Origin: Candidatus Bipolaricaulota bacterium
Lineage (GTDB): Bacteria > Bipolaricaulota > Bipolaricaulia > UBA7950 > UBA9294
DNA: 64,000 bases
Assembly (NCBI GenBank): GCA_028278555.1
Contig: JANQEA010000035.1
Span: 152,089 to 216,088 of the forward strand
Direction of reading: 5' to 3'
Positions 35,399 through 60,602 of this stretch are shown piece by piece. The position numbers were made by a program, and so were the translations under genes. The notes beneath the pieces were generated by a model. The model did no database searches, had not been told where the DNA came from, and worked only from the letters and a program-made list of their open reading frames with translations. Within the stretch, counting starts at the first letter, position 1. Each line of letters begins with the position of its first letter.

Positions 35399-35913
35399 CG
35401 GCTTCCTGTCTCCAGCAAATCGATATACGCTCCGCTCACGCGATCCGCGTTTTCGATGCCGAGTGACTCCAGCAGTCGATCGGCGGTTGCCGCTCCCTCC
35501 TCGGTCGATTCTCCCTCCTCGAGAACGACCTCGAGTTCCATGAACGTGCCGAGGCCCTCGACTTCATCGAGGTGGATTCGCGTTCGGCCGATACGATAGA
35601 GGAACCGACGTTTCACGACCACTCCCCGAACCTCGAGTACCGCCGTGAGCATGCTCAGGAACGTCTCGGGATCGGTCGACCAGACAAGGGCGTACTCCGA
35701 GACCTTTGCGGACGAGTCGTCCGGCCGCTCGTAGTAGATCAGCTCGCACGCGTCCGGCGCGAGAACGCGGAGCTTCAGCCGACCGCGTGGCACGACGAAG
35801 AACGTGTCGTGCTGATCGAGGTTCTCAACCGGAGTCTCAGTCAGCGCTTCGGCGCGTCGGCGGAAGGCGTCGACCTCCCTGACGCGCGCCTTGACCTCAA
35901 CGTTTCTCGCCAT
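35395..35913 (-). CDS. CYTH domain protein (class IV adenylyl cyclase / triphosphatase family)
   Basis: The EVKARV N-terminal motif (ExExK) is typical of CYTH. The product is 172 aa. Confidence 0.7.
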   Translation of the reverse strand: MARNVEVKARVREVDAFRRRAEALTETPVENLDQHDTFFVVPRGRLKLRVLAPDACELIYYERPDDSSAKVSEYALVWSTDPETFLSMLTAVLEVRGVVVKRRFLYRIGRTRIHLDEVEGLGTFMELEVVLEEGESTEEGAATADRLLESLGIENADRVSGAYIDLLETGSR

Positions 35914-36676
35914 CGTTCTCCTCCCACACCTTCAGCTGTCGATCGAGCGCGGCTCGGAGACTCGGATCGATTGGTTCACGATCCGGGTCTTCGCGGCGAT
36001 GGAGCACTCGAGGCCGTTCCTCCCCATAGGGAGTGAAGCGGAGTGCAACGTGCTCCAGATAGAACCGCGCGTTCCCCGGAGGCACCGGGTCGGCGTACAA
36101 CCAATCGTCGACAAGCGGTGCGCCGAGATGCGCCATCGTCGCGCGGATCTGATGATACCGCCCGGTGTGCAGCCGGAGGAGGGCATGCGCTTCGTCCTCA
36201 CGATCGGGTGTTGGTGCAAGCGCCAGGATCTCGGTGACCGCGCGTTTCCCACCGCTTCGAACGACGATCGAACGGCCGCCGCGCGTCCGAAGGTGGACCA
36301 TGTGTACGCCGATCCACCGCTCAGGCCGATCCGACAGCGTTCCATTGACCCGCGCCAAGTAGACCTTCTCCCAGGTGCGATCTCGAAGGCTCTCGTTGTG
36401 GAATCGGATCGCGTCGGCCGACAGCGCAACCACAACGATCCCTCTCGTCACCCGGTCGAGCCGATGCGGAAGCTTCGGAGCGGCATCTCGCGCCGCCGCC
36501 GCCCGGACCCGCGCGATCAGCGAGACGCCCTTCGGATCGCTCGTCAGCTCGGTCGCCATACCGGCCGGCTTGATGACGGTGAGTTCGTGCGGACCCTCGA
36601 AGAGGATCGGCAGCCCGAGCGCGTCCCAACCGACGTTCTCTCCCCCGGCGCTGGCAACAGGCTCCACGCGTTCCAC
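35897..36676 (-). CDS. RluA-family pseudouridine synthase
   Basis: Contains the catalytic HRLDRVTRG motif with its Asp. Confidence 0.8.
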   Translation of the reverse strand: MERVEPVASAGGENVGWDALGLPILFEGPHELTVIKPAGMATELTSDPKGVSLIARVRAAAARDAAPKLPHRLDRVTRGIVVVALSADAIRFHNESLRDRTWEKVYLARVNGTLSDRPERWIGVHMVHLRTRGGRSIVVRSGGKRAVTEILALAPTPDREDEAHALLRLHTGRYHQIRATMAHLGAPLVDDWLYADPVPPGNARFYLEHVALRFTPYGEERPRVLHRREDPDREPIDPSLRAALDRQLKVWEENDGEKR

Positions 36677-37056
36677 CTCCGTCTGCCCGAGAGTCTATCG
36701 CCAGGGACCGAACGCCGAAATGGTTCGACACAAGAAAGCGAGCGCACGAGATCCCGGAGCTTCTCGCACGCTCGCCGGTGGGCGACCTTCGGTTCACGAC
36801 ATCATGGGTACTCTGCATCCTTGAAGGGCCGATGTGCGTGCCGTGATGCGGGTGTGTTCCCGCAAGCTGGCGAAAGGTGAGAGCCCGGGCCGTATTGTGC
36901 AAGGCCCAGGCTCTCGTGACTCCTCAGCGTAGGGCAACCGTAGCTCGAAGGCGTGAACCGACTGTGAACCGTCGGTGTCGTCCGTGTGTCCTGTCCATCA
37001 GCCGCGGCCCAGAGTTCGGAAAGGCTTATCCCAAGGACATTTCGCCGCTTAGGGTC

Positions 37057-37085
37057 TTGACAAGGCCTGGGGACCGGCCTATAGT
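37057..37085 (+). promoter_or_regulatory. Consensus sigma70 promoter (TTGACA-17 nt-TATAGT)
   Basis: The -35 box is at 37057-37062 and the -10 box at 37080-37085. It drives rightward transcription into a non-coding region. Confidence 0.65.
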
Positions 37086-37091
37086 GGCCGC

Positions 37092-37263
37092 GATATGCTA
37101 GAAGCAGGTAGTCCTCGGATGAGCCGGATGGGTTCGAGCGGCGTCTGCTTCTATTGGTTTTGGTACGAGTCCGGCTCCCGCGCTGCACGCTAGCCACGAC
37201 TAGCTAGCAAGAGCAGCGAAGGGGCCGGAAGACGACTGCGGGCAACCGCGGTCTTTTCTTTTT
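37092..37263 (+). ncRNA. Candidate structured small RNA or riboswitch leader, about 170 nt
   Basis: Lies between a consensus promoter and an intrinsic terminator. It contains several internal helices (UAGAAGCAG/CUGCUUCUA, UCCGGC/GCCGGA, GCUAG/CUAGC) and no ORF. Its class is not identified. Confidence 0.4.
37234..37263 (+). terminator. Intrinsic terminator: 8-bp stem with a GCAA (GNRA) tetraloop followed by UUUUCUUUUU
   Basis: GACUGCGG-GCAA-CCGCGGUC followed by a T-tract. Confidence 0.6.
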
Positions 37264-37424
37264 GCGCGGAGGTGACAGGAAGCAGGAAGCGAGTCGGAAC
37301 AGGCCCGCCCGCGAGCGCGCTTGAGAAGCGTTCCCCTCGCGGGCGGACACGGATGGACGATCGGTGCAGATCGTCCGGGTTCGGTCCGAAGGACCACCGC
37401 AAGGATAACGCGGAAGGAGACGAA

Positions 37425-38426
37425 GTGAAACGGATCATTGCGGTTGCACTACTAGGACTTGTTGTCCTCAACGTTGGATTCGCGGCGGCGGCAGCCCCGT
37501 TGAAGATCGGGATCTGCAAGATCGTCGAACATCCGGCGCTCGATGCGGTCGAACAGGGAGTCATCGACACCCTGACGGCCGCCGGATATGTCGAAGGAGT
37601 CGATGTCGAGTACCTGATCGCCAGCGCCCAGGGAGACTTCGGCACGGCGATCTCCATCGCGCAGAACTTTCTAGCCCAGAACGTCGATCTCGTCGTCGCC
37701 ATCGCCACACCGACGGCGCAGGCGGCGGTCGAGGTCTTCCGGGGCACGGACACACCGATCATCTACGGCGCCGTGACGGATCCGGTCGGGGCCGAGCTTG
37801 TGCCGAGCGCCACCGACCCGAGCGGGAACGAAAACGTGACCGGGGTCTCTGACATGATCCCCGTCGCGGCGCACCTCCGGCTCCTGAAGGAGCTGTCACC
37901 CGACATCGTCAGGATCGGAATCGTCTACAACCCGGGAGAAGCAAACTCGGCGATCCTAACGGAGATGGCCCTCGCTGCTGCGTCGGACGTCGGTGTCGAG
38001 ATCGTCACGGCGTCGGCCGATTCGACGGCGAACGTCCCGCTCGCCGCCCAGTCGCTGATCGGACGGGTCGACGCGTTCTACGTCACCACGGACAACACGG
38101 TCGTCTCGGCGATCGACTCCGTCCTGGCGGCGTCCGAGGAAGCAAAGGTTCCTTTCCTAATGGCCGATCCGACGAGCCTCGCGCAGGCGACGCTCGCCGC
38201 CGGCTTCGACTACTACGAGCATGGCTTGACCGTCGGGCAGATTGTCTTGGACGTCCTCTCCGGAGTAGGAACCGACGAGATCCCGGTGACGTACCAGCCG
38301 ACCGCCGAGGTTCACCTGAACATCGATGCGGCAGCACGGATCGGGTTCGTCTTCTCACAGGCGGTGCTCGATCAGGCCTCGGCGATCCTGTACGGCGGGA
38401 TCATCTGGGAGAAGAAACAGCCCTAG
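37425..38426 (+). CDS. ABC transporter substrate-binding protein (ABC_sub_bind/COG2984 family)
   Basis: Has a signal peptide and a GTG start after a GGAAGGAG ribosome-binding site. The ligand is unknown. Confidence 0.75.
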   Translation: MKRIIAVALLGLVVLNVGFAAAAAPLKIGICKIVEHPALDAVEQGVIDTLTAAGYVEGVDVEYLIASAQGDFGTAISIAQNFLAQNVDLVVAIATPTAQAAVEVFRGTDTPIIYGAVTDPVGAELVPSATDPSGNENVTGVSDMIPVAAHLRLLKELSPDIVRIGIVYNPGEANSAILTEMALAAASDVGVEIVTASADSTANVPLAAQSLIGRVDAFYVTTDNTVVSAIDSVLAASEEAKVPFLMADPTSLAQATLAAGFDYYEHGLTVGQIVLDVLSGVGTDEIPVTYQPTAEVHLNIDAAARIGFVFSQAVLDQASAILYGGIIWEKKQP

Positions 38427-38454
38427 TACCGGGGCAAGCAGCGACGGAGGAACG

Positions 38455-39354
38455 ATGGCTGTCCTGTGGATTCACGCGGTCGAACAAGGCCTCGCCTACG
38501 GCATCGCAGCGCTGGGTGTCTTTCTAACCTATCGCGTGCTGAAGTTCCCCGACCTGACGGTCGATGGGAGTTTCGTGACCGGGGCGGCCATCGCTTCCGT
38601 CCTCCTGATCCGATACGGCGTCGACCCGTTCACGGTCCTTCTGGTCGCGTTCGTCGCCGGAGGGATCGCCGGATTGATCACCGGGCTCCTCAACACGCGT
38701 TTGGGGATCACGAACCTCCTCGCCGGCGTGTTGACGATGATCATGCTCTACTCGATCAATCTGCGGATCATGGGACGTCCGAACCTGTCGCTTCTCCGAG
38801 TCTCGACGGCGACGCGGATCGTCGATGCCGCCTGGTCGCCGCTCGGCGCGTTCTCCGTCCTCGCGTTCATCGCGATCCTGACGATTGCGATCAAGTTCCT
38901 TCTCGACGCCTTCCTTCGCACGGAAGTCGGCTTCGCGCTCCGCGCGACCGGCGACAGCGAACGGATGATCACGGCGCAGGGGGTGAATACGAAGACGATG
39001 AAGATCCTTGGATTGGCGCTTTCCAACGGGCTTGTCGCGCTCTCCGGCGCGTTGGTCGCCCAGTACAGCGGCTTCGCCGACGTCGGGATGGGACTCGGGA
39101 CGATCGTCACCGGGCTCGCTGCAGTGATTATCGGTGGAACGCTGATCCGATCGAGTCGCGTCGGATGGATGACCGCCGGCGTTCTCCTCGGTTCGCTCGT
39201 CTACCGGATCGCCGTCATCCTCGCCCTCCGATACGGCTACGTCATCGGGTTCCAGGCGAGCGACTTGAAGCTGATCACGTCGCTTCTCGTCATCCTCGCC
39301 CTCGTTGTCCCGTACCTTCGGGAGCGGCGGATGCGGAAGGTGAGCGCATGCTGA
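38455..39354 (+). CDS. ABC transporter permease (COG4120 family)
   Basis: Has about 8 TM helices and is 299 aa. Confidence 0.75.
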   Translation: MAVLWIHAVEQGLAYGIAALGVFLTYRVLKFPDLTVDGSFVTGAAIASVLLIRYGVDPFTVLLVAFVAGGIAGLITGLLNTRLGITNLLAGVLTMIMLYSINLRIMGRPNLSLLRVSTATRIVDAAWSPLGAFSVLAFIAILTIAIKFLLDAFLRTEVGFALRATGDSERMITAQGVNTKTMKILGLALSNGLVALSGALVAQYSGFADVGMGLGTIVTGLAAVIIGGTLIRSSRVGWMTAGVLLGSLVYRIAVILALRYGYVIGFQASDLKLITSLLVILALVVPYLRERRMRKVSAC

Positions 39355-40136
39355 GCCTCGAACGCCTGTCGAAGACTTTCCAGACCGCCGCCGATCGGGT
39401 CGTCGCGATTCGCGAGACCGACCTGCACCTGGAAGAGGGAGACTTCCTGACGATCATCGGATCGAACGGTGCCGGGAAGAGCACGCTCCTCAACCTGATC
39501 GCGGGAAGCTATCCGCCGACCTCCGGGCGGATCGTGCTAAGAGGCGTCGACTTGACCGGTATCCCGGCCCATCGGAGGGCACGGCGGATCGGTCGGATCG
39601 TTCAGGATCCGCTCGCCGGGACGGCCCCTTCGATGACGGTCGCAGAGAACCTTGCCCTGGCGATGAAACGGGGCCGCCGGTCCCTTCGGCTGGCCCTCCC
39701 TCGAAGGCTCCGCCGCCGCTTCCGCGAGCAACTCACCGCCCTGAACGTCGGGTTGGAGGATCGCCTCCGATGCCGGGTCGATCTCCTCTCCGGTGGGGAG
39801 CGCCAGGCCCTCGCCGTCCTGATGGCCACGCTCGTCCCGCCCGAAGTTCTGCTCCTCGACGAGCACACCGCAGCGCTCGATCCGAGCAACGCTGCGATGA
39901 TCGTCCGACTGACGCGATCGTTCGTCGAACGTCTCAATCTGACGACCCTGATGGTCACCCACAACATGGAGCAGGCGATCGACGTCGGAACGCGTCTGAT
40001 CATGATGCACAAGGGGGAGATCATCGAGGAGCTCCACGGGGTGGAGAAGAGCCAGGCGACCGTTCCACAGCTCGTCGACCTCTTCTCGCAGCACCACGTC
40101 GTCGACGACGAGCTTCTCCTCGAACGGGTCGTCTAG
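39348..40136 (+). CDS. ABC transporter ATP-binding protein (COG1101 family)
   Basis: Walker A GSNGAGKST and the LSGGERQ signature are present. It overlaps the permease by 7 nt. Confidence 0.8.
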   Translation: MLSLERLSKTFQTAADRVVAIRETDLHLEEGDFLTIIGSNGAGKSTLLNLIAGSYPPTSGRIVLRGVDLTGIPAHRRARRIGRIVQDPLAGTAPSMTVAENLALAMKRGRRSLRLALPRRLRRRFREQLTALNVGLEDRLRCRVDLLSGGERQALAVLMATLVPPEVLLLDEHTAALDPSNAAMIVRLTRSFVERLNLTTLMVTHNMEQAIDVGTRLIMMHKGEIIEELHGVEKSQATVPQLVDLFSQHHVVDDELLLERVV

Positions 40137-60443: not shown

Positions 60444-60516
60444 TGGGTGGTACAGGGCTCGAACCTGTGACCTCATGCACGTCAAGCATGCGCTCTCCCA
60501 GCTGAGCTAACCACCC
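60444..60516 (-). tRNA. tRNA-Val (anticodon GAC)
   Basis: The 73-nt cloverleaf has a 7-bp acceptor stem GGGTGGT/ACCACCC, a GTTCGAG T-loop and the anticodon loop TTGACGT. Confidence 0.85.
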
Positions 60517-60527
60517 ATCTCGTGCTC

Positions 60528-60602
60528 TGGAGGCGGCGACCGGATTCGAACCGGTGAATCAGGGATTTGCAGTCCCTTGCCTTACCGCTTGGCTACGCCG
60601 CC
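60528..60602 (-). tRNA. tRNA-Cys (anticodon GCA), CCA encoded
   Basis: Acceptor stem GGCGGCG/CGCCGCC, anticodon loop CTGCAAA and a U73 discriminator typical of Cys. The terminal CCA is present. Confidence 0.85.

Follow-up and report, generated by a model that had tools for sequence, protein, structure and literature searches.

Within the 64,000-nucleotide (nt) stretch of Candidatus Bipolaricaulota DNA analyzed here (hereafter the window, to which all positions refer), the segment from 37057 to 37263 on the plus strand forms a terminated leader upstream of genes that encode an ATP-binding cassette (ABC) importer. Our analysis indicates that this leader probably attenuates transcription of an ABC importer for aromatic amino acids in the ribosome-mediated way, by means of a leader peptide whose open reading frame (ORF) is predicted to be leaderless. 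Sensing of charged tRNA-Trp is the best-supported function of the element, and tRNA-Tyr and tRNA-Phe are probably sensed too. Comparison with related sequences shows conservation of the ORF, its frame and its aromatic codons, of co-evolving hairpins, of fixed spacings and of the linkage to the operon. An earlier sequence-only reading of the same DNA had described the element as a non-coding RNA, that is, a riboswitch or attenuator leader of unknown class or else an independent small RNA (sRNA). The attenuator leader stands, while the riboswitch, the non-coding nature and the unknown class do not, and the candidate "new riboswitch or sRNA" is replaced by a specific, testable mechanism.

A short aromatic-rich reading frame lies between a strong promoter and a terminator

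The leader opens with a sigma-70-type promoter at 37057–37085 (plus strand), in which TTGACA (37057–37062) and TATAGT (37080–37085) are separated by a 17-nt spacer. The two hexamers match the consensus at 11/12 positions, in agreement with the near-consensus promoter claimed earlier. A promoter and terminator scan of the region 35500–39000 returned this site as the only promoter-like one, and no second promoter-like site for the operon was detected in that region, including the untranslated region (UTR) at 37264–37424. At the other end of the leader lies an intrinsic terminator (37234–37263, plus strand) made of an 8-bp stem GACUGCGG/CCGCGGUC, a GCAA loop and the tail UUUUCUUUUU. Both the scan and the sequence place its core, GACTGCGG-GCAA-CCGCGGTC, at 37234–37253, followed by TTTTCTTTTT, so that the GNRA-loop terminator with its T-run is present where the sequence-only reading had put it.

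The same reading had stated that the transcript contains no ORF. We found instead that an ATG at 37095 opens a frame of 32 codons that ends with a TAG at 37191–37193 (37095–37193, plus strand; MLEAGSPRMSRMGSSGVCFYWFWYESGSRAAR) and that is kept in relatives. The ATG lies 9 nt 3′ of the −10 hexamer, and no Shine-Dalgarno (SD) sequence is visible ahead of it. Transcription usually starts 6–8 nt after the −10 box; the transcript would therefore begin at, or 1–3 nt before, AUG 37095 and would be a leaderless mRNA. The ORF carries the putative regulatory codon run TTC TAT TGG TTT TGG TAC (F Y W F W Y; 37149–37166, plus strand). The motif TGGTWYTGG occurs once in the window, where no further copy of the terminator or of the Trp-codon motif was found.

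The leader transcript has a minimum free energy of −84.6 kcal/mol (z = −4.55), which beats 200/200 dinucleotide shuffles. It folds into two long hairpins, hereafter HP1 and HP2, and the terminator. All three internal helices noted previously are found within this fold: HP1 is closed by UAGAAGCAG/CUGCUUCUA, and HP2 has UCCGGC/GCCGGA at its base and GCUAG/CUAGC at its tip. The codon run lies in the unpaired linker between HP1 and HP2, and both Trp codons (37155–37157 and 37161–37163) are single-stranded in the fold.

The frame and the aromatic codons of the leader ORF are conserved

The sequence of the importer's binding protein is found, identical, on one 14.2-kb contig of a public metagenome assembly. 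Its closest genome relatives are metagenome-assembled genomes labelled Candidatus Bipolaricaulota or Acetothermia, some of them mislabelled Thermotogae, at 46–89% identity; about 60 further loci came from a metagenome scan. DNA similarity to the element in these relatives is at the same spot, directly 5′ of the binding-protein gene. We searched 72 distinct upstream regions, each of at least 450 nt, for ORFs of 15–50 codons that start just 3′ of TTGAC-17/20-TAnnnT and contain three or more aromatic residues in a row, Trp among them. A promoter-adjacent ORF of this kind was present in 68/72 distinct regions upstream of orthologous binding-protein genes, and the same search gave none on the 72 reverse complements, none in coding controls and none in 360 shuffles.

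The promoter layout is common to 67/69 distinct relatives. Among the 67 parsed promoters, TTGACA is found in 61 and the 17-nt spacer in 57, and the −10 hexamer reads TATAGT in 39 and TATGAT in 12. In these 67 relatives, 6–11 nt separate the −10 box from the start codon, most often 9 nt (49/67). In two AT-rich relatives (L027 and L144), the promoter-proximal ATG gives only M-N-stop, and the aromatic ORF, which begins about 30 nt downstream, is preceded by a GAGG ribosome-binding site; not every member of the family therefore has a leaderless start.

The start was next set by the promoter only and the Trp motif by nucleotides only, in 65 regions. The distance from start to Trp motif was divisible by three in 63/65 regions, over seven length classes ranging from 54 to 72 nt. 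The frame of the start codon was stop-free in 63/65 regions, compared to 5/65 for the +1 frame. In the MAFFT alignment, all gaps ahead of the aromatic run are multiples of three, and a 1-nt gap occurs directly after it. Beyond the run, relatives differ both in the frame in which the peptide tail is read and in the stop codon that ends it; the N-terminal leader residues vary freely.

We then compared 70 distinct leader ORFs of 23–34 codons. An aromatic run with at least one Trp is present in all of them (70/70), WYWF being the commonest; 53/70 leaders have two Trp codons and 17/70 have one. Relative to the last Trp (70/70), position −1 is Tyr or Phe in 68/70, position −2 is Trp in 53/70 and aromatic in 64/70, and position +1 is Phe or Tyr in 59/70. 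Synonymous codons are mixed within the run, where TAT and TAC as well as TTT and TTC occur, and Trp makes up 5.9% of leader-peptide residues. This pattern is the signature of a leader peptide, in which, judging from the comparison, only the start, the frame and the regulatory codons matter. The start signal and the selection on frame predict that the ORF is translated.

Three hairpins co-evolve in two leader architectures

We named the strands A:B in HP1, C:D in HP2, and T5:T3 for the 5′ and 3′ strands of the terminator. In HP1 (37099–37153, plus strand), codons 2–5 of the ORF (A) are paired to those that immediately precede the Trp codons (B), and a U-rich linker follows; the inner part of this hairpin plus CTATTGGTTT scored as terminator-like in the promoter and terminator scan. 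HP2 (37170–37229, plus strand) is a long hairpin, and the ORF ends, with its TAG, in the 5′ half of it. Counted in the window from the first base of the last Trp codon, HP2 begins after 9–11 nt; 4 nt separate its end from the terminator core.

Pairing was analyzed in a MAFFT alignment of 56 leaders of the window's type, hereafter the long type. Partners were paired in 74.8% of cells, as against 37–50% when they were slid by 1–3 columns. Double-sided changes filled 204 cells compared to 97.5 in shuffles, a value reached by 0/500 shuffles, and concerned 9/10 stem pairs of HP1 and 15/15 outer and inner pairs of HP2. The terminator is paired in 99.8% of cells; the top of its stem covaries (GC/AU 42/12 and 39/17) and its GAC/GUC base is invariant in 55–56/56 relatives. 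When native duplex energies were compared to cross-sequence ones, z reached −11.9 for A:B, −14.5 for C:D and −11.8 for T5:T3; the inner part of HP2 gave −7.7. By these comparative measures, HP1, HP2 and the terminator co-evolve. A comparative alignment upstream of orthologous transporter genes had been suggested in the sequence-only reading, and it does contain conserved, co-evolving hairpins.

Relatives fall into two architectures. In the long type, HP1, HP2 and the terminator are followed by a UTR of 70–240 nt. In the short type (L019–L026 and others), an ORF of 23–27 codons ends one or two codons past the aromatic run and is followed directly by HP2, by the terminator and, at once, by the ribosome-binding site and start of the binding-protein gene. 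As the short-type terminator abuts the ribosome-binding site, the operon would be transcribed only by read-through.

In both types the distances around HP2 are nearly fixed. The spacing between the last Trp codon and the point where HP2 has its first consensus pair is 11–12 nt in 56/56 long leaders and 12–13 nt in 12/12 short ones, and the spacing from HP2 to the terminator is 2–5 nt in the long type and 4 nt in 12/12 of the short type. The stop codon is located just ahead of, or inside, the 5′ half of HP2 in both. A translating ribosome requires single-stranded mRNA as far as about +11 to +13, counted from the P-site codon's first base. With the last Trp codon in the A or P site, the leading edge of the ribosome would therefore fall where HP2 begins. 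Folding with a masked ribosome footprint gave a folded HP2 when the ribosome was placed on a Trp codon and a melted HP2 when it was placed on the stop codon. Comparison thus shows the position of the ribosome as the predicted determinant of HP2 folding.

The two types also share a purine-rich segment early in the ORF, which reads AGAAGC in the long type and GGAGGUGAU, a perfect SD look-alike, in the short type. Its mean duplex energy with the 5′ strand of HP2 is −11.4 kcal/mol in the long type and −15.1 kcal/mol in the short type; most unrelated segment pairs give roughly −5 to −9 kcal/mol.

Short-type ORFs (L019–L026, L134, L136, L139, L140) carry a near-invariant GG(A/G)GGUGAU about 25–38 nt in. 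This motif is SD-like, also codes for x-E/G-V-I/M, and shows strong complementarity to the 5′ strand of HP2, which is CCUCC-like; the 3′ strand of HP2 in turn resembles an SD sequence. The short-type HP2 thereby looks like a mimic of an SD:anti-SD pair.

Two other elements were considered in the leader and rejected. The sequence GGUUCGAGC in HP1 had suggested a tRNA-like element; it is a codon string for S-N/T-G and matches no tRNA or transfer-messenger RNA model. The (G/U)AG repeats are spaced unsuitably for a TRAP-like protein site.

A proposed attenuation mechanism

In the mechanism that we propose, the near-consensus promoter would start the RNA at the AUG or 1–3 nt before it, and the 32-codon ORF would be translated without an SD sequence. 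The translating ribosome would open HP1 and arrive at F-Y-W-F-W-Y in the single-stranded linker. With plentiful charged tRNA-Trp, and probably tRNA-Tyr and tRNA-Phe, it would proceed to the stop codon inside HP2 and keep the 5′ strand of this hairpin unpaired while the polymerase makes the terminator, and transcription would stop at 37263. A ribosome held on the aromatic codons would instead have its leading edge just ahead of HP2, which would fold. The folded HP2, 2–5 nt from the base of the terminator, would hinder completion of the terminator stem, leading to read-through into the transporter genes. Aromatic scarcity would in this way give more importer. We take stalling, with HP2 folded, as the read-through state because of physiological logic and precedent. 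Two accessory roles can be envisaged. HP1 and its U-rich linker, being terminator-like, could pause the polymerase until the ribosome arrives, and the purine-rich early-ORF segment could block HP2 when no ribosome separates both segments.

The interference of HP2 with the terminator is the least certain step of this proposal. General knowledge of intrinsic termination provides the idea for it: an HP2 of 50–60 nt would clash with the polymerase as the terminator stem closes to its base in the RNA exit channel.

Two groups of observations weigh against the attenuator that we propose. The first concerns the antiterminator. In several tests of the 1:2/2:3/3:4 scheme, no antiterminator sharing bases with the terminator was found. 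The terminator was kept in nearly all footprint-masked folds, the sole exception being L022 with the ribosome on the stop codon, and T5 was unpaired in folds of the RNA made before T3 exists. The best duplex partners of either terminator strand fell in inconsistent places between sequences. Cross-sequence permutation tests favored HP1, HP2 and the terminator alone: the pairings A:C, B:D, B:T5, C:T5 and D:T3, as well as post-terminator pairings, gave no sign of co-evolution (z between −3 and +3). A column-wise scan of the alignment for alternative helices returned only promiscuous G/U-rich matches, for example UGGUU with GACUG. We also considered an extension of the HP2 base into the terminator similar to that of Corynebacterium glutamicum, and rejected it since inspection revealed no consistent complementarity. 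HP2 and the terminator have no common base in the predicted folds, and HP2 folding depends on the position of the ribosome; since no competing helix was found, the step from ribosome position to termination is put forward here as a hypothesis.

The second group concerns the cargo, on which the evidence points both ways. In NCBIfam, the binding protein matches a single family, the tryptophan-binding TrpX (NF041285), with 219.8 bits for an equivalog cut-off of 390; the protein is a TrpX homologue and not an equivalog. Its solved relatives are 3LKV, 6HNI and 3LFT only (E = 2e-62, 1.8e-45 and 6.4e-41, nearly full length), whose ligands are Phe, Tyr and Trp, respectively (PMC6816091); here the cargo agrees with the codons of the leader, which speaks for the attenuator. 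At the two positions reported to set specificity, the window protein and the orthologues inspected have Asp and Tyr (MADPTS, GFDYY), compared to Glu and Tyr in the tyrosine binder CD0873 and to Ala and Gln in the tryptophan binder SP1069 (3LFT) (PMC6816091). These residues are closest to those of the tyrosine binder and unlike those of the tryptophan binder, yet Trp is the invariant codon of the leader; this is the point that weighs against the proposal. Because the specificity residues are nearest to the tyrosine binder, the predicted cargo is called only an aromatic amino acid, and tryptophan is not claimed. In favor of the proposal, limitation for tryptophan induces the homologous streptococcal importer TrpXYZ, by way of a T-box (PMC9382623).

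Because no antiterminator overlapping the terminator was found, the layout would be a new one. We tentatively suggest steric antitermination, in which HP2 would block termination without a shared-strand antiterminator, since the folded hairpin would be unable to enter the RNA exit channel of the polymerase behind T5, with strand A of HP1 or the short-type SD look-alike as its antagonist; we regard this specific form of the model as possible and rather doubtful. If true, it would represent an undescribed coupling of translation and termination, kept in two divergent leader architectures of one phylum.

Alternative explanations of the leader

A nascent-peptide arrest sensor like TnaC would explain part of the data, and we judge it unlikely. 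Here, the aromatic peptide together with free Trp or Tyr in the exit tunnel would stall the ribosome, and the operon would respond to the abundance of amino acids, imported for catabolism, and not to scarcity of charged tRNA. In line with this, the amino-acid class is kept over six consecutive positions, beyond the Trp codons, and the short type has a second conserved motif, x-E-V-[IVM]-x-G, about 11 residues before Trp; the arrest peptides TnaC and SecM contact the tunnel at roughly this distance back. However, this motif is equally well explained at the RNA level as GGAGGUGAU, complementary to the 5′ strand of HP2 at a mean of −15.1 kcal/mol. It is missing from the long type, including the window, and the N-terminal leader residues are free to vary. 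Moreover, to our knowledge, all leader ORFs rich in cognate codons act via the supply of charged tRNA. On the side of the arrest sensor, the RNA does not fix the direction of the response in the absence of an overlapping antiterminator, and fermentation of amino acids, Tyr and Trp among them, has been predicted for Acetothermia (PMC6092417).

An improbable reading is that of a stand-alone or dual-function sRNA, in which the terminated transcript of about 170 nt would base-pair in trans like Sinorhizobium rnTrpL, with or without a role as attenuator. With a very strong promoter and a strong terminator, the short transcript is probably abundant; its fold is stable (z = −4.55), and there is a precedent for an attenuator-derived sRNA (PMC6614838). 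On the other hand, the element is always directly 5′ of the same operon, whatever the upstream gene, and this operon lacks a promoter-like site of its own. What is conserved in single-stranded form is a set of codons and not a seed region, and there is no second copy within the window.

Across the sequences compared, the conservation pattern contradicts the two remaining readings, both of which are very improbable. A metabolite riboswitch, or a T-box-like tRNA sensor with a UGG specifier, would fit a structured, conserved leader with a terminator ahead of a transporter, and streptococcal homologues of this transporter are under T-box control (PMC9382623). Yet the Rfam check called for in the sequence-only reading, run over the whole window, returned no match to the leader at the gathering score, and no Rfam family, T-box included, was detected at E ≤ 10 in 36700–37600. 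In 15 relatives, Rfam likewise gave no leader, T-box or other riboswitch match at the gathering score; the Rfam searches yielded only tRNAs and chance-level hits. The leader consists of three plain hairpins without conserved junctions, bulges or loops, and its start codon stands at a fixed distance from the −10 box. Conservation among its unpaired bases is confined to the in-frame codon run, where synonymous changes and exchanges of Phe and Tyr occur; this disfavors the reading because a ligand pocket or a specifier would not tolerate such codon-like changes. A functional micro-protein, for example a small transporter subunit or partner encoded ahead of a leaky terminator, would account for an ORF kept in about 70 distinct versions beside transporter genes, but as a protein only the aromatic run is conserved, the N-terminus varies, the tails differ in frame and end, there is no hydrophobic helix, and conservation past the run follows the RNA hairpin and not the peptide.

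The importer operon and its surroundings

The attenuator candidate is followed by the three importer genes, all on the plus strand. The binding-protein gene (37425–38426; PF04392) starts with a GTG at 37425, 161 nt after the T-run, which agrees with the distance of about 160 nt to an ABC importer operon given earlier. It is followed by the permease gene (38455–39354; PF02653) and the ATPase gene (39348–40136; PF00005). We counted neighbors at 63 loci with at least 1500 nt upstream of the leader: the permease accompanies it in 59/63 loci and the ATPase in 57/63. The upstream neighbor in the window, a divergent gene for an RluA-type pseudouridine synthase (35897–36676), does so in 1/63. By this count, the leader element stays with the transporter operon and not with the upstream gene.

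The 161-nt 5′ UTR of the operon (37264–37424, plus strand) is predicted to be made only by read-through. We consider GGAAGGAG, ahead of GTG 37425 on the plus strand, to be the real ribosome-binding site. Another SD-like sequence, GGAGGTGA at 37268–37275, has no start codon after it, and the same motif is the binding-protein ribosome-binding site in short-type relatives. The UTR is itself conserved and structured. A conserved GCAAGGATA is found about 25 nt 5′ of the binding-protein start. A GC-rich hairpin at 37301–37346 is unique in the window and a second hairpin lies at about 37350–37380. The GC-rich hairpin occurs at the same place in 15 loci, and three tandem copies of it are apparent in L017. 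This structured UTR may be a second control layer or a repeat insertion.

An N-terminal extension of the binding protein from a GTG at 37272 (384-amino-acid frame, 37272–38426) was also considered. It would add about 50 residues ahead of the signal peptide and span the UTR hairpins; its equivalent in L006 is in another frame and ends with a GTGA overlapping the start. This extension is probably not real.

The divergent intergenic region that separates the leader promoter from the pseudouridine synthase gene contains, at 36868–36915, a long inverted repeat (GAGAGCCCGGGCC...GGCCCAGGCTCTC) whose flanks are kept in L002 and partly in L003. In L004 and L012–L018, a palindrome TTAGCAC...GTCTGCTAA and a CTTGTCAAC motif lie about 40–120 nt 5′ of the leader promoter and adjoin an apparent divergent gene. 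They are not present in the window, and the palindrome is possibly the operator of an unrelated regulator. Elsewhere in the window, two adjacent tRNA genes on the minus strand (60444–60602) match the Rfam tRNA model with 65.6 and 69.1 bits and are the window's only Rfam matches.

Comparison with known systems

The leader described here adds a leader-peptide attenuator family to a phylum whose first isolate was reported in 2025 and which is heavily dependent on imported amino acids. Its mixed Trp/Tyr/Phe run suggests that one sensor serves the three aromatic amino acids together. With their fixed spacings and no overlapping antiterminator, the roughly 70 natural variants also constitute a data set on whether a neighboring hairpin alone defeats an intrinsic terminator.

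As in the enterobacterial leaders trpL and pheL (trp operon and pheA), the amino acid handled by the operon is represented by codons in a short leader ORF. An intrinsic terminator stands ahead of the first structural gene, and the position of the ribosome decides the outcome, as is proposed for the leader of the window. In contrast to these leaders, the one described here has no match to an Rfam leader family (Trp_leader and related), its predicted leaderless ORF replaces an SD-preceded one, and it controls importer genes and not a biosynthetic pathway. Its codon run mixes Trp, Tyr and Phe, and the hallmark 2:3 antiterminator sharing a terminator strand was not found.

By our comparison, the closest precedent is the leaderless ilvBNC attenuator of C. 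glutamicum, in which transcript and leader peptide start about 1 nt apart and a three-hairpin model applies (PMC11857589). Both systems have three successive hairpins, with antiterminator and terminator standing base to base, and in both a pausing or anti-antiterminator role is proposed for the first of the hairpins (PMC11857589). The ilvBNC hairpins compete for a shared GCC trinucleotide (PMC11857589), whereas HP2 and the terminator share no base here. That attenuator also responds to branched-chain and not aromatic amino acids, in another phylum and with other genes; the two are compared here by their layout.

Leaderless leader peptides have further precedents in Deinococcus deserti, where they are predicted (PMC4007540), and in the polycysteine upstream ORFs of mycobacteria (10.1101/834739). 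These have in common with the window a leaderless 5′ AUG and a short codon-enriched ORF as the first cistron of a related operon. They concern other amino acids and phyla, and the likeness is in ORF layout.

The streptococcal TrpXYZ operon encodes the same transporter family (PF04392 binding protein, permease and ATPase) behind a leader terminator (PMC9382623). Aromatic supply is sensed there, and proposedly here, through the translation apparatus. The sensor in streptococci is uncharged tRNA on a T-box, whereas the window has no detectable T-box and an ORF instead; within one transporter family, a T-box and a translated leader would be different sensors converging on the same decision. Finally, Sinorhizobium meliloti rnTrpL/peTrpL is likewise a short, structured, terminated RNA encoding a Trp-containing leader peptide (PMC6614838, PMC7298713). 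Trans functions of both RNA and peptide have been shown in that system (PMC6614838, PMC7298713), whereas the leader of the window is known from its sequence. Leader-peptide attenuation, leaderless leader peptides and control of this transporter family by amino-acid supply are thus already known; what is new is the leader family and its phylum, the use of a mixed aromatic run to control an importer, and a layout in which no overlapping antiterminator is recognizable.

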